Part shown: positions 1-26,225 of the stretch, piece after piece
How positions within the stretch are numbered: the stretch's first letter is position 1
Layout: every line of letters begins with the position of its first letter
Source: an archaeon
GTDB lineage: Archaea > Asgardarchaeota > Thorarchaeia > Thorarchaeales > Thorarchaeaceae
Reading direction: 5' to 3'
Assembly: GCA_024276825.1 (NCBI GenBank)
Contig: JAJRWI010000079.1
Span: 32,001 to 96,000 of the forward strand
DNA length: 64,000 nt
The notes under the pieces: generated by a model
What the model was told of the DNA's origin: nothing
What the model saw: only the letters and a program-made list of their open reading frames with translations
The model's database searches: none
Program-made: the position numbers and the translations under genes

Positions 1-698
1 ACAACTGTGTGTTTGCCGCCTTTTGGAATGGGAGCACTCAATAAATGAATTGCATGCTGAGCAACATGTTCTGCCATATCTGTGGGCGGTGACTTCTCGA
101 ACATCTCCCATCCACCAGTTATACCATAGGCCTGATAACTGGGAACAATCTTGCCAGCTTCAGCGGCAACCGCCCTTAGAATTATACTTGGCCTGCTGTC
201 AAAGATCTCTACATCGGTCCCGTCAGAGTTCATGATGATTCTGTGATTTCGCGGCTCTCGAATCCATGATGTTGACCCACTTATCCGTTTGTCATATTCA
301 TTGATGATCTTGTCTGCTTCTTTGACTATGCTGATGATCTCTTCAATATCGTGATTCTCGAAGGGATCCTTTCCTGTCGCTCTGAAAGTCCCCTTCACTG
401 GTTTTATCGGAGCCAGCTCGATCTTCTCCTTCTTGCTCTGGGCAAGACTCTTTGCAGCTGCAATCGCATTTGACAGGGTCTCATCAACAGATTCTGCATC
501 GAGCTTGCTGGTACTTGCATAGCCCCAAGCACCATCAACAAGGACACGGATACCAATGCCTGCAAAATCGTCCACAACAGCCTGCTTCAGCTGGCCCTTA
601 TCCATTCGTACTTGAGTGTACTTTCGTTGATGGTAGCGCGCTTCTACATGTGCATCCTCGGGACAGTTGTCAATAACTCTCTGAACTAGGTCTCTCAT
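1..698 (-). CDS. tldD: TldD/PmbA family metalloprotease (5' part; runs off the window)
   Basis: Not in the ORF track. Manual translation from ATG at 698 gives MRDLVQRVIDNCPEDAHVEARYHQRK...FAGIGIRVLVDGAWGYASTS, the TldD N-terminal GxGIRV...GxWGYAST motif. Confidence 0.85.
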   Translation of the reverse strand, partial: MRDLVQRVIDNCPEDAHVEARYHQRKYTQVRMDKGQLKQAVVDDFAGIGIRVLVDGAWGYASTSKLDAESVDETLSNAIAAAKSLAQSKKEKIELAPIKPVKGTFRATGKDPFENHDIEEIISIVKEADKIINEYDKRISGSTSWIREPRNHRIIMNSDGTDVEIFDSRPSIILRAVAAEAGKIVPSYQAYGITGGWEMFEKSPPTDMAEHVAQHAIHLLSAPIPKGGKHTV

Positions 699-1262
699 AT
701 GGAAGTCCCTCGCATTAAACATTTTATTAATTCGGAGGTTCTTAATAAGTGAGATTAATGAAGCAGAACAATGATTTTCAGATTAACAATGGAAAATTGT
801 TAATAATAGTAGGAATTCTTGAACATGTGTCACATGTATTTCGAATTCCGCCATTGTCAAATTATTCATGGAATGAAAATAATTGAAAGAGCTGATCATT
901 ACTGAAGTTTGCAGTCTTGCTGCTAGACTGAGAGCTATGTTTTCATTATCTATTTCAATAGCATTCAACATGCCACAATGGGATAAAAGAATGAATAATC
1001 ATGATGCATGTGCAGGATAATGCCATTTTTGGGGTGTCTACTGCATTTTTCGTTGTATCTCGCCTCATCTGACTGGTATTATTTGCAAATATTTCTCATT
1101 GACTTCTGGCGGCTTGTACACCAACATTCAGCTAATTGGAATATGCATGAAATCCATCATTAAGATGATAGAAGTAATAATGTTTGTCAATAATACACAA
1201 TATTCAACTAGGACCATGATAAGCCTTAAAATGAGAAAATAGCAAAAAAAAAATACAAGTAT

Positions 1263-1277
1263 TTAATGATTCATTAA
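1263..1277. promoter_or_regulatory. 7-1-7 palindrome TTAATGA-T-TCATTAA overlapping a TATA-like element; candidate operator of the peptide operon
   Basis: Perfect inverted repeat 26 bp upstream of ATG 1304, preceded by an A-run (about 1244-1253). Confidence 0.45.
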
Positions 1278-1303
1278 CTTGGCCAATGCTTAAGGGGATC
1301 AAT

Positions 1304-1669
1304 ATGTTGTCGAAAGACAGTAAGCAAGCATTTATAGCGCTATTTCCATTGGCTGCACTAGGAATAACTGCATTTTTCAATCTGGGAGAACTCCATGTTG
1401 TTCAAGGCAATATTATCGATGTTCTATATGTCTATGGATACATCAATATGAATGATACAGTTCCACTTTGGATCCTCACACTTCTTTTTGGAACGGGAGG
1501 ATATGCATTCTATTTCTTAGGAACAACTTGGGCCCAATTGAAAGCAATAGCTAATTTGTATTCAATTCCTTGGGCAGCTGCTGCGATTATTCTCGCAGCG
1601 TTTGGTGCCGAGCCAGCTGCGGCAGCTGCTGGTTTAATTGGTCTGGCATATGTCACCGTTGGGGCATAG
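1304..1669 (+). CDS. Putative circular (head-to-tail cyclised) bacteriocin/archaeocin precursor, 121 aa
   Basis: GGGGA SD before ATG 1304 (ORF track starts at 1286). Hydrophobic leader ends ...VVQGN|IIDVLY. The Ala/Gly-rich core ends ...AAAAAGLIGLAYVTVGA. First gene of a SpoIIM/Yip1/ABC operon. Confidence 0.6.
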   Translation: MLSKDSKQAFIALFPLAALGITAFFNLGELHVVQGNIIDVLYVYGYINMNDTVPLWILTLLFGTGGYAFYFLGTTWAQLKAIANLYSIPWAAAAIILAAFGAEPAAAAAGLIGLAYVTVGA

Positions 1670-1679
1670 CGAATTAGTA

Positions 1680-2255
1680 ATGGATTATGGGGGATTCAAC
1701 TCAATGATTTCAATGAAGTATTCCTCAACAATTCTAATATTGGGCATGCTGTTGGGGATTCTGGCTGGAACTACTGAGAATATTGATTCATCATCTCCAA
1801 AGAACATTGATTTTGCCTACCATCCCTCTTTTTTTTCCATCTTATGTAATAACATTGGAGTTGTATTAACCCTTATTCTAGGTGGAATTATCCTATTTTC
1901 CATCCCCACCATATTAGTGGTATTATTAAATGGTATTCGTACTGGTCTGACAATTATGATATGTATCAGAAGCTCAAATCTCATGCCCATATTGGCAGGC
2001 ATTCTTCCTCATGGAGTATTTGAGCTGTCTGGATATGTGTTTGCAGCCACCATAGGTCTTGAAAGTACGCGATTGATCATTGATGTGATGCTAGATGGCC
2101 CTTCAAGAAATCAAGGGCCAAGTTTGAAACAAGGCCTCAATTCTTATTTGACAAATGATTATATGAAATATATCATATTGTCAATAATTCTCATAACAAT
2201 GGGCGCATTAATTGAGAGCACATGTTCTTTATATCTGATGGAGATGTTTGCATGA
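1680..2255 (+). CDS. SpoIIM / DUF95 family membrane protein
   Basis: Motifs SILCNNIGV..LILGG, PTILVVLLNG, ILPHGVFEL and a C-terminal GALIE. Start probably ATG 1680 or slightly later. Confidence 0.88.
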   Translation: MDYGGFNSMISMKYSSTILILGMLLGILAGTTENIDSSSPKNIDFAYHPSFFSILCNNIGVVLTLILGGIILFSIPTILVVLLNGIRTGLTIMICIRSSNLMPILAGILPHGVFELSGYVFAATIGLESTRLIIDVMLDGPSRNQGPSLKQGLNSYLTNDYMKYIILSIILITMGALIESTCSLYLMEMFA

Positions 2256-2938
2256 ACGATGATCATTCTACTGATGGATCAGTGGTATCATTAGTGAACG
2301 GGTATTTAGGAGTCAAGAGCGGACTTAAGTTAATATTGCCTGCTCTTTTTAAGCCATGGAGCGCCTTTATAGAGGTTGCTGATAAGAAGTCCAGTCGAAG
2401 AATCGCATTATTTCCATTGATTGTAGTGGCATTAATGCAATTCTTGTTTATCATTCAGGTGATACTTTACATTTTTCATAAAAAGGTAATTGATGGTGAT
2501 ATAGTTCTTTTACCCGGAACAACAGAGGAAACATACTATTACTCGTTTTACACAGCGACATTGCTAAGCACAATTTCAGCAGTTGTCATCGTTTGGATGG
2601 GAGTTGCTGCAATAAGCTATTTTGTTTGCAGATTGATGAATTATCAATTGAACTTCGGGCAGCTTCTAACATTATCCTCATTTTCCTTACTTCCAACAGC
2701 GATAAGTATGTCAATTGGCACAACCATTTTGATATTCTTAGGTCCTGAAGTACTATTTGCTTGGGCTAACACTATTCAACTTTTTGCAATAATGAATGGG
2801 ACAATCATAATATGGGAGAGCATTATTTTGATGTATATACTAGTCAATCTTGCTGACATCAACACAAAAAGGGCTTTCATTGTAGGGATCATATCTTCAG
2901 TTATCCCCCATTTAATTGGACTACTGTCAATAGCCTGA
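2252..2938 (+). CDS. Yip1-family membrane protein
   Basis: LFKPWSAF N-terminal motif, about 5 TM helices, F.QLL.LSSFSLLP motif; ATGA overlap with the upstream stop. Confidence 0.75.
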   Translation: MNDDHSTDGSVVSLVNGYLGVKSGLKLILPALFKPWSAFIEVADKKSSRRIALFPLIVVALMQFLFIIQVILYIFHKKVIDGDIVLLPGTTEETYYYSFYTATLLSTISAVVIVWMGVAAISYFVCRLMNYQLNFGQLLTLSSFSLLPTAISMSIGTTILIFLGPEVLFAWANTIQLFAIMNGTIIIWESIILMYILVNLADINTKRAFIVGIISSVIPHLIGLLSIA

Positions 2939-2940
2939 AG

Positions 2941-4416
2941 GTGAATATGAAAACAGAAATGAGGAGTAATGCCTTGAATATTATTCTTGAAGCACTGAAA
3001 TCCAGATTTGGAAGCATTATTTTTGCTCTGCATTTCTTTTTTATTGGCAGTCTATTGATGCTAATATTCCCTCTTTTTGTCCCACCACCAAGGACAGAAA
3101 TACCAGCTAGCGACTTGTATAGAATAATCCTAAATGGCAGTATAACATCCATACTTTCATCACTTATTATTGCACCTGCATTCGGCTTCGGAATCGCTAA
3201 TTGGTTCTTTTCAAAACGTTATCCCTTGCAACAATGGGCAGATTTCCCAATTGATGGCAGGCAAATCAATGCCAATATGGTTTCAGTCGTTTTTGAATTA
3301 AGCATTTCATATTCTGCATTTAGTCTTCTAGAACCGATACTGAGAATTCATAATTTGCTGAATTTCACTCAAAGAGTTATTTTTGTTGCTTTGGTTCTTC
3401 TAGAAATATTTGGATTGACGCTAATAGCTGTAAGTGGCATAATCTTTTTGGTTTATTCAGCGTCTGTATCTAATCTTCATAGCACAAGAAGAATCTTGCC
3501 CTTCTTTTTCTTATCCATAGTTGGTGCAATTGGTTCCCAGTTTATTCTGATAGGAGGATTGGGAAACCCGTTGAGTGGAAATGCTGGGTCAGTTCAATTC
3601 GTATTCGAATCTCAGATATTAAACATAATTCAAAGACTCATAGCTGGAGATGTAGTATTGGATTATTTCATCATTCTGTCAGGATTACTCATTGCAGCAA
3701 TGACTGTCTTTGTGGTAACGGGGAAAATCATCAATCAGGGGTTAGAAAAGGCCAGACGAGGTGATTCACTCCACGAAGAATCGATGAGGGAGGAATTCAT
3801 TGAGCATCCATCGATAGAGATTCTACGAATAATGCTCACGGATCAATACACAGTGGGAAGACCGTTTTTAATTGCAATTATTCTGGGCATGATGTCATTT
3901 GGATTTTTGCAATTGATGCTAAACCAACCCGTTAATCTTGCCTTAATTCTTATGTTATTAATCCCAACAATTGGAACAATGGAGTCATTGTTTGTTGCAA
4001 CCATTGCTGGCAAGAACACTCTCAATTTTTATCGAGAGAGTCCAAATGGCATTCGCTTCTACTTTGGGATACAAGTATGCTTTTCATCTTTGATTACATT
4101 GATTGTATCAATAGTGAGCATATGCGTAATTGGATTCACGATTGGGTATTTGCCCTCTTTATCTGAGTTGAATTCATATTTGATATTTGTTCCGATATCG
4201 GTTATAATATCAGTCATGATGGCGACTATTCTTCATGCTCTACTCAAGCCGACATCAATTGATGACCCCGTTGTTATCTTAATCTGGCCAATTGTGATCA
4301 CTCTAAACGTGATTATAATGACATACTTAAGCATGGCCTCTTTGATCACAATATTTTCTTTTGTGATATTCATTGCGGCTATTTCATTTACATTAATGGA
4401 GGAGATCAATAGATGA
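2941..4416 (+). CDS. Large polytopic membrane protein (putative exporter/maturation protein)
   Basis: 491 aa, roughly a dozen hydrophobic segments, coupled to the downstream ABC ATPase. Confidence 0.7.
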   Translation: MNMKTEMRSNALNIILEALKSRFGSIIFALHFFFIGSLLMLIFPLFVPPPRTEIPASDLYRIILNGSITSILSSLIIAPAFGFGIANWFFSKRYPLQQWADFPIDGRQINANMVSVVFELSISYSAFSLLEPILRIHNLLNFTQRVIFVALVLLEIFGLTLIAVSGIIFLVYSASVSNLHSTRRILPFFFLSIVGAIGSQFILIGGLGNPLSGNAGSVQFVFESQILNIIQRLIAGDVVLDYFIILSGLLIAAMTVFVVTGKIINQGLEKARRGDSLHEESMREEFIEHPSIEILRIMLTDQYTVGRPFLIAIILGMMSFGFLQLMLNQPVNLALILMLLIPTIGTMESLFVATIAGKNTLNFYRESPNGIRFYFGIQVCFSSLITLIVSIVSICVIGFTIGYLPSLSELNSYLIFVPISVIISVMMATILHALLKPTSIDDPVVILIWPIVITLNVIIMTYLSMASLITIFSFVIFIAAISFTLMEEINR

Positions 4417-5159
4417 ATGCAGATTCAATATCAAGACCTGCAGTTGTTGTAAGAAATGTTACAAAGAAATATGGTAAACTCACAGTCCTTGATAACATTA
4501 GCTTCAATATTAGCCATGATGAGGTTGTAGGGCTTGTCGGGCCAAATGGATCAGGAAAGAGCACTTTACTAAGAATTCTGAAGGGAGGACTTTATCCTAC
4601 AACTGGTGAGGTTATTATTGGGAACTTCAGTATCAATAAGCAGCCTGACTCTATTCGAAGAATAACAGGAATCGCACATGATGAGCCTGTTCTTTTCGAA
4701 ATGATGACAGGGATGCAGTTCTTGCATTTCGTTGCAAGTATTTATCGGGTCAAACCACAAACAGCAAAAGAGTCTATTGGCTATTGGGTCAGGGCTCTTG
4801 GCCTAGACAATCAAATCAGAAACAGGATTGAAACATATTCCCATGGAATGAAAAAGAGACTTTCAATAGTCGCTTCATTGATTCATGATCCATTTCTATT
4901 ACTCCTTGATGAACCAACACAGGGACTAGATCCTGATACACGAACAATTTACATGCAAAGGATAATGAATAATGCATTTAAATCAGACAGAGTTGTAATA
5001 ATAAGCACGCACAGATTGGATATTATTGATGATTTGTGCTCGCGAGTATTAGTAATTCGAGGGGGCAGAATTATTGAAGATGGTTCGATTGAATTCATAA
5101 AAACAAAATACAATGCTGATGACATTGAAGAGGCGTATCTTCTCACTGATGATGAATAG
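4413..5159 (+). CDS. ABC transporter ATP-binding protein
   Basis: Walker A GPNGSGKS, signature YSHGMKKR, Walker B LLLLDEPT, H-loop STH. Confidence 0.95.
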   Translation: MNADSISRPAVVVRNVTKKYGKLTVLDNISFNISHDEVVGLVGPNGSGKSTLLRILKGGLYPTTGEVIIGNFSINKQPDSIRRITGIAHDEPVLFEMMTGMQFLHFVASIYRVKPQTAKESIGYWVRALGLDNQIRNRIETYSHGMKKRLSIVASLIHDPFLLLLDEPTQGLDPDTRTIYMQRIMNNAFKSDRVVIISTHRLDIIDDLCSRVLVIRGGRIIEDGSIEFIKTKYNADDIEEAYLLTDDE

Positions 5160-5174
5160 GGAGATCTCATTGGA

Positions 5175-6116
5175 ATGAAAATAGTTGTTAGGAATGTTTC
5201 ATATAAATATGGTCGCAAGAAGGCACTTGATAATATTTCATTAGATATAGGACCGGGAGTAACTGGACTCATCGGAGTAAATGGCTCAGGAAAAACAACC
5301 CTGTTGAAATTGATACTCGGAATCATTCCAATTCAAGAGGGCGAGATATTAATCAATGATTCCCCAGTGCCCATTAAAGATAAAGAGAAACTTGTTGAAA
5401 TTGGATATATCCCCGAAATACCTGCATTAGATAATGAATTGACCTTACATGAATACCTTGGCTTCTTTCTGAGTATTTTGGAAACTGCTGGGGGTAAAAC
5501 AACAGGACTTGATGAAATCATAGAAATTGTCGGACTGGGCGATGCCAAGAATAGAAGAATATCTGACTATTCACGTGGAATGAAACAGAGGGCCTGCATT
5601 AGTCAATCCATATTGTGCAAGAGAAGGATATTAATCCTTGATGAGCCCCTCTCACATTTGGACCCTCTTAGTAGAATCCAATTCAAGGAGCTATTCAGAG
5701 AATGTGCTGATGATGGGGCAATAGTATTAATCTCCTCACACATTCTAGGCGAGCTGGATGAAATATGCGACAATGTCGTTATTCTGAATGACGGAAAATT
5801 AATTGAATATGGAGCAATTGGTCAATTAAGAAACAAATATGAATCTAATGTGGTTCAATGGGTTATAGAAACAGATAGCCCGATAGAATTGGCAGATCTA
5901 ATTGAAAATGAGCTTAACCCTTCGGCGATCGAAGTCATAGGTAATGTAATCAGGGTGCTAGTCGGGTCTAATCCCAGAATGAAAAGCTTGTTTTTTGGAT
6001 TGCTGGCAAGGACATGTAATATTGAAATCTTCAGGTTCTATGATAGAAGTTTGAGCCTTGAGGGCATATTGAAAAGAAGCATGGGGGACAATAAGAATGA
6101 ATCGCAAATTCATTAA
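5175..6116 (+). CDS. ABC transporter ATP-binding protein (ABC-2/DrrA type, with C-terminal domain)
   Basis: GVNGSGKT, YSRGMKQR, ILILDEP, SSHIL. Confidence 0.95.
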   Translation: MKIVVRNVSYKYGRKKALDNISLDIGPGVTGLIGVNGSGKTTLLKLILGIIPIQEGEILINDSPVPIKDKEKLVEIGYIPEIPALDNELTLHEYLGFFLSILETAGGKTTGLDEIIEIVGLGDAKNRRISDYSRGMKQRACISQSILCKRRILILDEPLSHLDPLSRIQFKELFRECADDGAIVLISSHILGELDEICDNVVILNDGKLIEYGAIGQLRNKYESNVVQWVIETDSPIELADLIENELNPSAIEVIGNVIRVLVGSNPRMKSLFFGLLARTCNIEIFRFYDRSLSLEGILKRSMGDNKNESQIH

Positions 6117-6855
6117 GGAGATTATAAAGAGGGAATACCGAATATTTGCAAAAGGCCATCAATTCATTATTGTTCTGGCATTCTCTGTGGCAGTTGCAGT
6201 GCTCCTATTTACTTCAATAGTAACCTTATCAAAAGATGTTATAGATCTCTTGTTTTCTCAATTTGAGATCGGGTACTATTTCTTAACAAGCTATGCAATC
6301 ATCCTATTTGGAGTAATCACCATATTCAATTCAGCAACAGGATTTTCACGTGAACATGAACACAACATGCATCAGGTCTTATACATCCTTCCAATTGACA
6401 CTTCAAGTGTGATTATCGGAAAAGCGCTAGCCATATGGTCTTGCACCATTCTTACCACTTCGATACCATATTTCACAATCATCATAACACTGATTGCTTT
6501 TCTTGGTTTGCAGGTATCTATTTGGATTGTTATTGAGCTATATGCCATCTTTGCTTTTTCCATGATTCTATTGTCAAGCTATTCCATGATCGCATCTATT
6601 GTTTCAAAGTCCAATGGAGTTTCATTCTCGATTAGTCTAATGACTTTGATAGGCGCAATTATGCTTAAGGAAAATAGAGTCCTAAAATATCCATCCCCAT
6701 TTGGATTCTTTGATTATTTGACATATGGTGTTGTGATTCATGAGTTAGACCCAATAGCTGTGTTTATTTTCTTATTCGCCTGTGCCATGGGCATTATGAG
6801 TTCTCTTGCGATGTCATGGTTTCTTTTTGAGAGGAGAGCAGCATACATGTTTTAG
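6097..6855 (+). CDS. ABC-2 type exporter permease
   Basis: IIKREYR N-terminus, FSREHE...LYILPI....VIIGK motif, 6 TM segments. Confidence 0.88.
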   Translation: MNRKFIKEIIKREYRIFAKGHQFIIVLAFSVAVAVLLFTSIVTLSKDVIDLLFSQFEIGYYFLTSYAIILFGVITIFNSATGFSREHEHNMHQVLYILPIDTSSVIIGKALAIWSCTILTTSIPYFTIIITLIAFLGLQVSIWIVIELYAIFAFSMILLSSYSMIASIVSKSNGVSFSISLMTLIGAIMLKENRVLKYPSPFGFFDYLTYGVVIHELDPIAVFIFLFACAMGIMSSLAMSWFLFERRAAYMF

Positions 6856-6914
6856 TTCATTATGCTTTTCATAGATGCAATGAGTCGTGAACCGCCCACA
6901 ATCATTCAATTTTC

Positions 6915-7006
6915 GGGGTTGCATTTAGATGCATAGAGGTTAGACAGAGTTGGACACCAATCAAAGGATCATCTAAATGATACTCTGAAATTTTGGAGGG
7001 CTTAAA
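6915..7006 (+). repeat. Dispersed intergenic repeat, copy 1 (5' half only)
   Basis: GGGTTGC...AGATGC.TAGAGGT.AGACA.AGTTGGACACCAATCAAAG.ATCATCTAAATGATACTCT is nearly identical to 14612-14705. Confidence 0.85.
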
Positions 7007-7188
7007 GCAATTCCCCAGCCATCGGGGTTTTCAGAGCCATGTCTTTGAAAGACATCAAGGGAGATTGTGGCTTTAACAGGACCTGCAAAACAAAGACCAA
7101 GAAGATCACACATGATTAATCACTTGTTAGCCACATGATTTGCTTGTTATTATTTTTTGTATCTCATTTGGATGAAAGAGGCAAAGTA

Positions 7189-7825
7189 TTATGATTCATA
7201 GCGACACATCTTTACTTCGATATTCCTCGGAGATGAGTCATCGAGCATATTCTCCATCTTATCATCAACATAGAGTTTCAGATTCTTTCCTTGTATTGGT
7301 CTGACATCGATGGAACGGAATCTATTGGACATCAATGACAACTTAGTTAAGGATCTGCAATTGCTCAGTGGGGAGAGATCAATTGACTTGATTTTGTTGT
7401 GGTTTATTGTCAGATTAGAGAGTGTAGTGCATCCTGCCAAAGGTGAAAGATCAAGTGATCTTAGTGTGTTGTGACTTATTATTAGCGATTCTAGTGATTT
7501 GCACTCTTTCAAAGGCGACAGATCAAGTATTGTGAACTTGTCACAATAATAGATAGACAGGCTTTTGAGATTGATACATGACGATAATGGTGAGAGGTCA
7601 ATACTGAGCGCTCTTAGTTGTACTAGATCCATTTTCAATCAGATACTCATTTCCTTCAAGAGGCGAGAGGTCAGAGTCATTAGTGCTATACATTTCAAGT
7701 CGGAATGGTCTATCGTTTGGAATGTCATAGGTTGTAAGACCTTCATGATAGGAGATCTGAAAGACCCGCAACTTTGTTTTATTTTTATTATTATCTTGCA
7801 GAGTATAATCACCGCCGTATCTCAT
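7189..7825 (-). pseudogene. Leucine-rich repeat protein, frameshifted
   Basis: Repeats IDLSPLxxCxxLxxLxIxxN. The upstream frame (MRYGG...DLSPLEGNEYLIE) joins MDLVQLRALSIDLSPL if one base is removed from the run at 7632-7635. Confidence 0.7.
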
Positions 7826-7892: not shown

Positions 7893-9578
7893 CTAGAATA
7901 TCTTTGGTTCTTCCCATTCACCCCAGATTTCTCTCCAGACATCACATATCTCGCCGACGGACGCATAGGCCTTCACGGCCTCTACAATGTGAGGCATGAC
8001 ATTGTCGGTTCCTTCGGATGCCTTTCTCAGTGCGTCAAGGGTTTCCTGTACACGTTGGTTGTCGCGTTCCTTGCGGACCTTGTTCAAGCGAGCGACCTGT
8101 TTCTTCTCAACCTCAGGATCAATCTTGAGAACTGGGATGCTCAGGTCTTCGCCCTCAAGAACAAAATCATTAACTCCGACGATTATTCGCTTCTTGGTCT
8201 CAATCTCGCGTTGGTACCTATAGGCGGACTCTGCAATCTCCCTCTGGAAGAAGCCCTTCTCAATAGCAGCGATCACACCGCCCATTGCTTCAACTTTATC
8301 GAAGTACTTGTAGGTCTCTTCTTCCATCTGATTGGTCAGCCATTCGATGTAGTAAGAGCCGCCGAGAGGATCTATCGTGTTAGCAACCCCGCTTTCATAG
8401 GCAAGCACCTGTTGCGTTCTAAGTGCAATACGGACAGCATCCTCGGTTGGGAGACACCAGGCCTCATCCATGCTGTTTGTGTGCAGTGATTGAGTCCCTC
8501 CGAGAACTGCAGCCAGTGCTTGATATGCAGTCCTGACAATGTTGACTTCTGGCTGCTGTGCAGTAAGCGAGCATCCAGCAGTCTGTGTATGGAAGCGCAT
8601 CCAGAGTGAGCGTTTCTTCTTGGCTCCAAAGCGCTCTTTCATCTCACGAGCCCATATCCTTCGAGCAGCACGATATTTTGCAATCTCCTCGAATATGTCA
8701 TTGTGTGCATTGAAGAAGAATGAGAGGCGTGGTGCGAAAGCATCCACATTAAGACCATGATCAATACCAACCTGTACATAGGTCAGACCGTTGAGAAGTG
8801 TGAATGCCAGTTCCTGAACTGCAGTGGATCCAGCCTCACGAATGTGATAACCACTAATGGAGATAGTGTTCCATCTCGGGATGTTATTAGCACAGTACTC
8901 CATAATATCGCCAATTATTCGAAGAGACTGTTCAGGAGGATATATCCAGCTCTTCTGAGCCATGTATTCTTTTAAGATGTCATTCTGAATTGTGCCGCCA
9001 ATCTGAGTGGGTGCAACACCCTGCTTTTGAGCAGCAACCATGTACATTGAAAGAAGAATAGATGCAGGAGCATTGATAGTCATTGATGTTGTTACCTTGT
9101 CAAGTGGAATCCCATCAAACAGGATTTCCATGTCCTTGAGTGTGTCAACAGCCACACCGAGTTTACCAACCTCGCCAAGTGCAAATGGATGATCCGAATC
9201 TCTGCCGTAAATCGTAGGCAGGTGAAACGCCACGCTCAGCCCAGTCTGACCGTTGGCAAGGAGAAACTTGTACCGGGCATTCGACTCCTCGGCAGTGCCC
9301 ATACCTGCAAACTGTCGCATTGTCCAAATTCTGCCCCTGTACATAGTGGGCTGAACACCACGAGTATATGGATAATCGCTTGGAAATCCGAGGTCTCGGA
9401 GGTAATCTAAATCGGGAACATCAAGGGGCGTGTATAGTCGATTTATTGGACGGCTAGAGGTTGATATGAATTCTGTCAGTCTCTCGGGGTGCTTCTCAAG
9501 ATGTGGTCTTAGAGTTTCTGACTCCCACTTGTCTTTTGCTTCGCGAATCTTTTCAAGACGCTCATTTAAGCTTCCCAA
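7893..9578 (-). CDS. icmA: B12-dependent acyl-CoA mutase, substrate-binding subunit (isobutyryl-CoA mutase type)
   Basis: MCM-family motifs [43 protein letters not shown]. Phe and Gln occupy the Tyr89/Arg207-equivalent positions. Confidence 0.85.
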
Positions 9579-14610: not shown

Positions 14611-14841
14611 GTGGGTTGCGCGTAGATGCGTAGAGGTCAGACAAAGTTGGACACCAATCAAAGAATCATCTAAATGATACTCTATGAAATTGTGGGGGGC
14701 CTAAATAGTATCGTGGGAAACAATGGTCTGAAATTTGTCCAATGCCGTTCCTGGAAGGACAGGACTTTAATGTCCAAGACTGTCCAATTTACAATGAACG
14801 GCAATAGAAGATAAGACAACGAAGCAATAATGAGAATCAAA
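14611..14841 (+). repeat. Dispersed intergenic repeat, copy 2 (full; structured 3' half)
   Basis: Shares its 5' half with 6915-7006 and both halves with 26019-26225; TGCCGTTC...GAACGGCA stem. Confidence 0.85.
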
Positions 14842-26018: not shown

Positions 26019-26225
26019 GGGGTTGCGCACAGATGCTGAGAAATGGGACAAACTTGGACACTCTTCAAATAAATGTTTGATAGAACCCTTGAAAAATGTA
26101 GGAGCTTGAATTGTGTGACACATACAAGAGAAAAGCAGTCCTGTGCCGTTCCAGGAAGGACTGGACTCTGATGTCCAAGAATGCCCAACTTACAATGAAC
26201 GGTTTCAACCGACATGAGAATCAAA
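26019..26225 (+). repeat. Dispersed intergenic repeat, copy 3 (diverged)
   Basis: GGGGTTGCGC..AGATGC..GACAAA.TTGGACAC and TGCCGTTCC.GGAAGGAC.GGACT.T.ATGTCCAAGA.TG.CCAA.TTACAATGAACGG...ATGAGAATCAAA are shared with copy 2. Confidence 0.8.

Follow-up and report, generated by a model that had tools for sequence, protein, structure and literature searches.

Circular bacteriocins are head-to-tail cyclised peptides, prized because they are extremely stable, and the prime suspect for closing the ring is the DUF95/SpoIIM protein. Genome mining for this class has used as its criterion a precursor together with DUF95 plus a protein that binds ATP, and predicted precursors have been reported from Firmicutes, Actinobacteria, and Thermotogae only (PMC8534725). 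In bacteria, a small gene just before a stand-alone SpoIIM/DUF95 gene and genes for ATP-binding cassette (ABC) ATPases is treated as the class-defining signature (PMC13289728; PMC8534725). Yip1 is a frequent extra, especially beside accessory ABC sets (PMC8659200), and the cerecyclin cluster, which consists of cycABCDI, YIP1, and cycEFG, likewise carries it (PMC8534725). For archaea, a survey of peptides made on ribosomes and modified after translation (RiPPs) covers the YcaO, radical-SAM, lanthipeptide, and lasso classes only, and Makarova et al. (2014) counted DUF95 (arCOG01996), along with ABC ATPases, as one of the most frequent families of archaeal 'dark matter islands', leaving both uninterpreted. 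Here we describe a seven-gene cassette with a comparable inventory at positions 1304–6855, plus strand, of a 64,000-nt stretch of Thorarchaeota DNA (the window; bases 32001–96000 of the 115-kb contig JAJRWI010000079.1), from a genome of 2.9 Mb that is 98% complete (GCA_024276825.1).

What makes the locus stand out is a recurring combination of a small hydrophobic protein, a stand-alone SpoIIM, Yip1, and two ABC sets. By analogy with the bacterial clusters, we give an even chance to the reading, the likeliest of those considered, that the cassette is a mobile operon whose products make a small hydrophobic peptide active on membranes, export it, and protect the cell from it, following the logic of a circular-bacteriocin cluster. 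Should this be correct, cyclisation itself would be the likelier outcome. The gene content, order, coupling, conservation, rarity, and family assignments are established. The open reading frame (ORF) list and coordinates were verified, and the seven co-oriented genes, with the two putative parts of the first product, are as follows.

1304–1669, plus strand: small hydrophobic protein, 121 aa, candidate precursor (ORF, ribosome-binding site, three homologues)
1304–1411, plus strand: putative leader of the small protein, 36 aa, with a basic N-terminus and a hydrophobic stretch; putative boundary
1412–1666, plus strand: putative core of the small protein, 85 aa, net charge -2, 32% Ala+Gly; putative boundary
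1680–2255, plus strand: SpoIIM/DUF95 membrane protein, 191 aa (PF01944); an alternative TTG start at 1638 overlaps the small gene
2252–2938, plus strand: Yip1-domain membrane protein, 228 aa (PF04893); its ATG overlaps the SpoIIM stop as ATGA, with an alternative ATG at 2222
2941–4416, plus strand: polytopic membrane protein, 491 aa, belonging to a new family, with ~12 hydrophobic segments and no family match
4413–5159, plus strand: ABC ATPase 1, 248 aa, DrrA/ABC-2 exporter type (PF00005)
5175–6116, plus strand: ABC ATPase 2, 313 aa, extended at the C-terminus, GldA/lantibiotic-protection type (PF00005)
6097–6855, plus strand: 252-aa membrane protein, putative ABC-2-type permease (hydropathy; sub-threshold PF12730 match)

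The seven genes were found in identical order in three further assemblies, giving four loci in total: the window, L006 (genome G014), L015 (a metagenome contig), and L016 (a contig of a metagenome-assembled genome). Given this recurrence, the arrangement is not due to chance. An all-against-all comparison of ORFs of at least 20 aa across the four loci returned only the seven cassette genes as common, and the flanks were all different. Compared with the window, the three further cassettes are 32–42% identical in the small protein, 24–30% in the four membrane proteins, and 41–46% in the ATPases, and the G014 and L016 cassettes form a close pair (76–92%). The host is of Asgard type, as first proposed: the SpoIIM of the G014 locus is recorded by NCBI as 'Candidatus Thorarchaeota archaeon', and Thorarchaeota sits in Promethearchaeati, the Asgard kingdom.

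To gauge how widespread the cassette is, the 491-aa protein was used as its most specific marker. It was found in one of 40 relatives, namely G014, which belongs to the same family and another genus, and was absent from both same-genus genomes examined; across the phylum, two of 400 genomes carry it. An exhaustive HMMER search of 1.84 billion representatives with its profile returned three proteins, all from the cassette, a word-seeded search of 5.8 billion proteins returned the self match only, and a pattern scan of genome contigs with the alignment gave no match. The GC content of the cassette is 0.376 against 0.428 for the entire window, and the composition profile reads 0.36–0.40 over ~750–7750 compared with 0.45–0.50 in both flanks. 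From its rarity, its absence within the genus, its differing flanks, and its low GC, the cassette behaves like an accessory, horizontally mobile unit. Synteny with the two same-genus genomes did not yield the insertion borders, as the flanking TldD matches there were just 28–30% identical.

The description of seven co-oriented, partly overlapping genes in an AT-rich block proved accurate for every gene and for the block (GC 0.36–0.40), and all seven genes follow one another with stop/start overlaps or gaps of at most 16 nt. The proposed inventory stood for SpoIIM and Yip1, both above Pfam cut-offs, and for the two ATPases; the ABC-2 permease was matched below threshold only. SpoIIM matched PF01944 at E 3.4e-25 (89 bits, cut-off 26.9), and the cassette SpoIIM aligned with the DUF95 proteins of annotated circular-bacteriocin clusters at an hhalign probability of 98.3% (E 1.8e-14), with NG, PHG-FE, and A-IE motifs in common. 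When the window SpoIIM was searched with tblastn against 72,556 plasmids, five weak matches were obtained, and all three that we inspected lie inside annotated circular-bacteriocin clusters, one of which (Bacillus cereus) further encodes Yip1 together with an accessory ABC set. The Yip1 protein, with five or six hydrophobic segments, matched PF04893 at E 8.3e-10 (39.2 bits, cut-off 28.6). Its match to the YknW family NF052650 was weak (E 0.0017, 17.9 bits against a cut-off of 110). Among the other loci, the Yip1 match carries no mark in L015 and a 'weak' mark in L016, the family search at E 0.001 missed the copy in G014, and hhalign of the cassette Yip1 family against the Yip1 of the B. cereus cluster gave no result.

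The ABC components appear to form two modules. ATPase 1 matched PF00005 at E 1.1e-27, its best NCBIfam match was TIGR01188 (drrA), below cut-off, and it shares 45–46% identity with the first ATPase of each other cassette. The 491-aa protein, with its ~12 hydrophobic segments, matched no Pfam or NCBIfam family, and hhalign found no similarity between its family and the cassette's own permease. Since its stop overlaps the start of ATPase 1, we take it to be the membrane partner of that ATPase; the ~12 transmembrane segments and the translational coupling suggest a functional analogue of the B protein of bacterial clusters. ATPase 2 matched PF00005 at E 1.7e-27, has TIGR03522 and TIGR03740 as its best NCBIfam matches, both below cut-offs, and is 30% identical to the ATPase of the gassericin A cluster. 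The 252-aa protein is present in all four cassettes, with six or seven hydrophobic segments; its match to PF12730 (ABC-2) fell below the cut-off of 27 (E 0.0058, 17.1 bits), and hhalign found no similarity to the gassericin and plantacyclin ABC-2 permeases. Its topology and coupling fit a putative ABC-2-type permease partner of ATPase 2.

Homologues of the small protein were found three times, at 32–42% identity, always as the first gene of a cassette. In the window, GGGGA lies 6 nt 5' of the ATG. The four proteins are 117–121 aa long with hydrophobic segments throughout, and all share one layout: a basic start (MKKDT...), ~20 hydrophobic residues, and small residues (A-H-G in G014 and JBRC, V-Q-G in the window), then an (I/F)I(D/N)VL..(F/Y)G(Y/I)I..N...PL block, a G.TW.Q..A block, and an Ala/Gly-rich tail. 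Following the initial annotation, we placed the putative leader/core boundary before the (I/F)I(D/N)VL block. In the closest pair (G014/L016), the dN/dS ratio (nonsynonymous to synonymous substitution rates) of the small gene was 0.42, indicating purifying selection; it was 0.15 for the leader and 0.60 for the core, so that the leader is under tighter constraint on these small counts. We also weighed a class III (pilin-type) signal peptide and rejected it, since the four homologues do not all retain the K/R-G/A motif.

The clusters of subgroup II (class IIc) are among the closest known systems. We located class IIc records with the gassericin A core as query (100% to gaaA) and compared four clusters: gassericin A (pLgLA39), plantacyclin B21AG (pB21AG01), Bacillus thuringiensis, and L. 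paracasei. In these the precursor gene lies directly 5' of SpoIIM, just as the small gene does in all four cassettes, and downstream of SpoIIM lie genes for an ABC ATPase and an ABC-2 permease, in the same order as in the cassette. The proteins are also alike in their ~30-residue leader with a basic start and a hydrophobic stretch, in a hydrophobic, Ala/Gly-rich, neutral or anionic core, and, for the window and L015, in a core ending in Ala. Putative leaders are 32–36 aa in the small-protein family and 27–35 aa in class IIc; the putative cores have net charges of -2 to 0 and -1 to +2, grand average of hydropathy values of 1.1–1.5 and 0.9–1.0, and Ala+Gly contents of 28–32% and 31–43%, respectively. 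The putative leader fits the 22–35 aa expected of class IIc, whereas the core, at 85–87 aa, fails the expectation of ~58 aa and exceeds the 58 aa of the compared peptides. The small protein further differs in lacking a PF12173 match and in its archaeal host, and the cassette adds Yip1, the 491-aa membrane protein, and a second ATPase.

Language-model searches pointed the same way. In the ESM Atlas feature search, the class IIc cyclic-bacteriocin cluster ranked first both for the window protein (score 0.83) and for the 33%-identical G014 homologue (0.89, 166 of 256 features), scores that by the search's own calibration are leads and not proof; PF09221 and PF16942 clusters were also among the matches. 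That two divergent proteins return the same top cluster makes chance less likely, and shared composition may contribute. A global alignment of the small-protein family with class IIc covers both over their full length if a single ~24-residue insertion is allowed, and it lacks statistical backing. A likeness seen by eye in the first ten core residues (Q-F-G at positions 7–9) was set aside, as it appears in the hhalign global alignment and not in the MAFFT alignments and is statistically unsupported. The word-seeded search of 5.8 billion proteins gave only the self match for the small protein, and tblastn against the plasmids gave none.

Structure predictions were also made. AlphaFold2 modelled the full precursor poorly from two alignment rows (predicted local distance difference test score, pLDDT, 53), and the core alone, from four rows, as a compact five-helix bundle (pLDDT 74, predicted template modelling score 0.55). 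The best fold matches of the core model were generic ~90-residue globular or death-fold helical bundles with Z of at most 5.7, a level that is not meaningful. A complex prediction of SpoIIM with the small protein returned no verdict (score 0.00).

One further ORF touches on the small protein. At G083:C202:1246–1563 (L041, minus strand), a 105-aa ORF aligned with the small-protein family (hhalign 88.6%, E 2.6e-6), shares its N..VPL and W.QL motifs, and ends in ...LAA; by these motifs it is a probable distant relative. The surrounding locus was rejected as a related cassette, with its two downstream membrane proteins matching neither SpoIIM nor Yip1.

The cassette also resembles the clusters of subgroup I, for which we compared AS-48, cerecyclin, B. 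cereus pFORC087.2, and a C. beijerinckii plasmid. Enterocin AS-48 is encoded by as-48ABCC1DD1EFGH. Shared features are a large polytopic protein beside an ABC ATPase, a second ABC export set, Yip1 in the B. cereus clusters, and a homologous DUF95. The differences are that the 491-aa protein cannot be aligned to the 525–581-aa B proteins, that the small protein shows no relationship to the family of uberolysin/carnocyclin and is anionic where that family is cationic, and that the cassette has neither a membrane-fusion protein nor a conserved small immunity gene. Altitudin S from Bacillus altitudinis, a proven circular peptide with a 132-aa precursor and a Yip1-SpoIIM-ABC cluster (bioRxiv 10.1101/2025.10.31.685828), indicates that a precursor of comparable size can be cyclised. 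Its core is strongly cationic (+13) and its cluster includes an M48 peptidase, whereas the core in the cassette is anionic and very hydrophobic and no peptidase is present.

To place the SpoIIM and Yip1 genes in context, both domains were scanned in 86 genomes of the archaeal family. A ~275-aa Yip1 gene was near-universal and therefore looks like a housekeeping gene. The SpoIIM domain occurred in 66 genomes, in 64 of them as the C-terminal part of a conserved ~900-aa ORF, apparently a housekeeping form unlike the stand-alone cassette gene; the SpoIIM part of this ORF covers profile positions ~70–163 (for example, G014:C108:95895–96176 and G000:C80:69097–69411). Outside the two cassettes of this family, stand-alone SpoIIM genes of ~200 aa were confined to G010 and G349, in both of which they adjoin a second-type Yip1.

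G010 carries a second type of cassette (G010:C10:36566–42747; L052:6566–12747), with SpoIIM, Yip1, an ATPase, and an ABC-2 permease followed by a second module, in which an ATPase is coupled to a 544-aa polytopic protein; a convergent ORF of 106 aa, hydrophobic and rich in Ala, with GGAA at its end, is also present. Its SpoIIM aligned with the window type at an hhalign probability of 98.3%, and its ATPases pair off with ABC1 and ABC2 of the window cassette. The G010 small and 544-aa proteins could not be aligned to the window's small and 491-aa proteins. The inventory is thus the same, the order differs, with the small ORF convergent in G010, and this system is uncharacterised as well. The leader motif of the window's small-protein family (D-x3-A-L-x2-L-x-P-L-F-A) looked by eye like the start of the G010 small ORF, a likeness that was dropped, having no hhalign support. 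In G349 (C134:4629–7274; L051) we observed a decayed copy with a truncated permease, lacking the small ORF and the second module.

Several results weigh against assigning the cassette to the circular bacteriocins. None of the four small-protein homologues matched Pfam, even at E 10, and their profile gave chance-level matches only among PDB sequences. With hhalign, the family showed no similarity to uberolysin/carnocyclin-type precursors (probability 0.1%) and no significant similarity to class IIc precursors (probability 3%, P 0.014), and the family of four 491-aa proteins reached a probability of 0.1% against three bacterial B proteins (525–581 aa). No circular bacteriocin was among the fold matches of the core model in PDB and the Atlas. 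The largest proven circular bacteriocin has 76 aa, below the 85–87 aa of the putative cores. Two of the four small proteins end in Glu, and their putative cores start with Phe; those of the window and L015 end in Ala, and the circular bacteriocins examined for comparison end in Ala, Trp, or Tyr. A GA-II junction, which the initial annotation had put forward, is therefore specific to the window genome. The C-terminal alignment contains indels. The small protein has diverged no faster than the membrane machinery and is conserved over its whole length, which would fit a structural membrane subunit equally well. No additional ORF of at least 20 aa is conserved among the four loci that could encode a small immunity protein (~50–60 aa); a lineage-specific one is possible. 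Finally, the closest SpoIIM relatives outside the cassettes comprise methanogen genes adjoining an AliA_AliB membrane protein, a Bacillales gene among sporulation genes, an archaeal gene in a housekeeping context, and one gene in a genuine PF09221 bacteriocin cluster. Given these mixed contexts, SpoIIM alone is not diagnostic and does not prove peptide maturation.

Because the DUF95 and ATPase components are present, and both a precursor-family match and B-protein homology are lacking, we file the cassette as working like a circular-bacteriocin cluster and not as a demonstrated member of the class. The initial identification as a circular-bacteriocin cluster thus holds in its inventory, gene order, and precursor-like profile, and it does not extend to a known precursor family or to a homologue of the B protein. 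Its statement that the inventory is diagnostic of such clusters agrees with the published criterion (PMC8534725) and with Yip1 and accessory ABC sets as extras (PMC8659200). The fully specified version, a SpoIIM-dependent, head-to-tail cyclised, anionic hydrophobic peptide of ~85 residues with its own precursor family and its own exporter subunit of 12 transmembrane segments, we put forward tentatively, as a possibility on the doubtful side.

By analogy with the described clusters, processing, cyclisation, export, and an antimicrobial or signalling activity could proceed as follows. The 121-aa product would enter the membrane through its 32–36-residue leader, with the basic N-terminus and ~20 hydrophobic residues, and the leader would then be cut off just before the conserved (I/F)-I-(D/N)-V-L motif. 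The ~85-residue, Ala/Gly-rich, neutral-to-anionic core would be matured with the adjacent SpoIIM/DUF95 protein, with head-to-tail ligation as a possibility. The 491-aa protein and ATPase 1 would act as the dedicated exporter, the role given to B and D in the AS-48 and circularin clusters. Yip1, ATPase 2, and the permease of six transmembrane segments would form an accessory self-protection pump comparable to As-48EFGH, CycEFG, and GaaTE.

The alternative that survives best, in our judgement rather improbable and still a serious contender, is an envelope or membrane complex that releases no peptide. The small protein would here be a permanent three- to four-helix subunit or an assembly factor acting with SpoIIM, Yip1, and the two ABC-2-type exporters; handling of lipids, glycans, or the surface layer, or coping with stress, would be conceivable tasks. 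Hydrophobic segments along the entire small protein, conservation from end to end at the rate of the other membrane proteins, and the lack of similarity to known bacteriocins all agree with such a subunit. For the G014 homologue, the Atlas model is similar to pieces of polytopic membrane proteins, albeit at a pLDDT of 0.47, and the SpoIIM family does occur outside bacteriocin contexts, including the ~900-aa ORF in 64 of the 86 genomes. A housekeeping envelope function is ill-fitted, however, to an occurrence in two of 400 genomes, absence within the genus, differing flanks, and low GC. The core alone was predicted as a compact globular bundle and not as an extended transmembrane hairpin, the language-model searches twice ranked cyclic bacteriocins above generic small membrane proteins, and the second cassette type retains the machinery with an unrelated small protein.

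We regard as unlikely a linear secreted or membrane-inserted peptide (an archaeocin, pheromone, or surface-active product), for which the N-terminal 32–36 residues would serve as a signal or anchor of the Sec type that signal peptidase cleaves at the small residues (VQG, AHG), with the ABC systems exporting or restraining the product and no ligation taking place. The N-terminus is indeed laid out as a signal peptide, with its basic start, hydrophobic stretch, and small residues before the FI(D/N)VL block. The variation of the C-terminal residue (Ala, Glu, Ala, Glu) and the indels would be unexpected for a ligation site, and the core is longer than that of any proven circular bacteriocin. Set against this, a small gene with a stand-alone SpoIIM/DUF95 and ABC ATPases is treated in bacteria as the signature of circular bacteriocins (PMC13289728; PMC8534725), and no linear-peptide system using DUF95 was found in the literature searched.

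The cassette might instead only protect its host from a membrane-active peptide made by others, with the small protein as an immunity protein, in the manner of As-48EFGH or of YknWXYZ. In B. subtilis, YknWXYZ combines a Yip1-family protein with an ABC exporter and protects against the SdpC toxin. The two systems are alike in encoding a Yip1-type membrane protein with an ABC exporter, and they differ in that YknWXYZ is not known to include SpoIIM, a small first gene, or a second ABC module. The Yip1 protein's weak YknW match, far below cut-off, the proximity of ATPase 2 to lantibiotic-protection and GldA-type ATPases, and the lack of a separate conserved immunity gene point in this direction. 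Yet known immunity proteins of circular bacteriocins are cationic and ~50–60 aa long (53–64-aa ORFs in the compared clusters), compared with 117–121 aa and an anionic character here. Protection sets do not normally come with a stand-alone SpoIIM right after a small gene, and two ABC modules plus SpoIIM exceed the protection sets of the compared clusters. We consider a protection-only role very improbable. An assembly artefact, in which a bacterial (Firmicutes) fragment was joined into an archaeal contig, would account for a GC below that of the flanks and for an architecture otherwise known from bacteria, but this explanation, which the initial annotation had raised as a possible refutation, is effectively refuted by the position of the cassette 33 kb inside a 115-kb contig, by the recovery of its seven genes in four independent assemblies with GC tracking each host locus (0.38–0.51), one of these assemblies being named Thorarchaeota, and by the lack of bacterial relatives of the 491-aa and small proteins among 1.84 billion and 5.8 billion proteins and of any tblastn match of the small protein in plasmids.

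The surroundings of the cassette hold three further features.

750–7750, strand not assigned: low-GC block from the composition profile, containing the cassette, the upstream spacer, and a leucine-rich-repeat gene fragment
1261–1268, plus strand: TATA-like box TATTTAAT, 3' of an A-run and 36–43 nt before the start codon (sequence reading)
6916–6986, plus strand: copy of a dispersed 71-nt repeat, 61 nt past the last gene, at the 3' edge of the cassette

The box at 1261–1268 is a putative archaeal promoter of the operon, and AT-rich boxes like TATTTAAT also lie 5' of the small gene in the other three cassettes. Between the TATA-like box and the start of the small gene, three of the four cassettes contain a tandem unit of 25–26 nt in ~2.3 copies (L006:1950–2009, L015:6255–6312, and L016:2700–2757), examples being TAGGGATGGTCTAAAGGGAGGCCACC in L006 and GTGAGTTGGTATAAGAGGACCACTC in L015. 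Every full unit in L006 includes an ATG-GTC-TAA mini-ORF. The window has no tandem unit, and its final 14 nt before the ATG, GGGATnCAATATG, are common to it and the repeat-bearing loci. This tandem repeat may be a regulatory leader. The 71-nt repeat is 90% identical to 14613–14683 and 61% identical to 26020–26090, and a further segment near these copies is common to 14737–14801 and 26138–26202; as the initial annotation suggested, it looks like an element of the miniature inverted-repeat transposable type. Past the cassette, within the low-GC block, a 149-aa leucine-rich-repeat ORF (7189–7638, minus strand; LRR_8 and LRR_4, internalin-like repeats) has no counterpart in the other three loci. 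Beyond it, at 7893–9578 on the minus strand, lies the large subunit of a B12-dependent acyl-CoA mutase, 59–81% identical to the copies of the same genus, in which the initial annotation had pointed to residues of the isobutyryl-CoA-mutase type.

Upstream, a divergent TldD/PmbA metallopeptidase pair adjoins the cassette (G000:C73:29962–32722, or L038:5962–8722, minus strand), the end of which falls at window 3–722. L015 likewise has a TldD/PmbA pair, ~3.8 kb upstream of its cassette, and none was found within the sequence examined around the G014 and L016 cassettes, so that two of the four loci have one nearby. In E. coli, TldD/TldE process the microcin B17 precursor. By analogy, it is conceivable that TldD/PmbA acts as leader peptidase for the small protein; these genomes carry four or five TldD/PmbA-type genes, which makes a chance adjacency to the cassette plausible.

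We found no archaeal circular bacteriocin in the literature searched, in keeping with the initial annotation, which knew of no characterised Asgard example, and the system would be the first of a circular-bacteriocin-like kind described in archaea. If the peptide reading is true, this peptide class would extend to archaea, beyond the three bacterial phyla of the mining work (PMC8534725), and a cyclised product would surpass all others of the class in size and be the first of archaeal origin. A system in archaea that retains SpoIIM, Yip1, and the ABC ATPases with a new precursor and a new large protein would narrow down the essential parts. Taken with the second cassette type, it would make SpoIIM-based cyclisation an ancient toolkit of both domains and not a Gram-positive speciality. 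If the cassette instead encodes a membrane complex, it would add two new SpoIIM-linked protein families, bearing on the role of the widespread, little-understood SpoIIM family outside sporulation. The Asgard archaea are difficult to grow, and archaeocins of such a kind have not been described from them; a peptide product would offer a first handle on their peptide competition or signalling.

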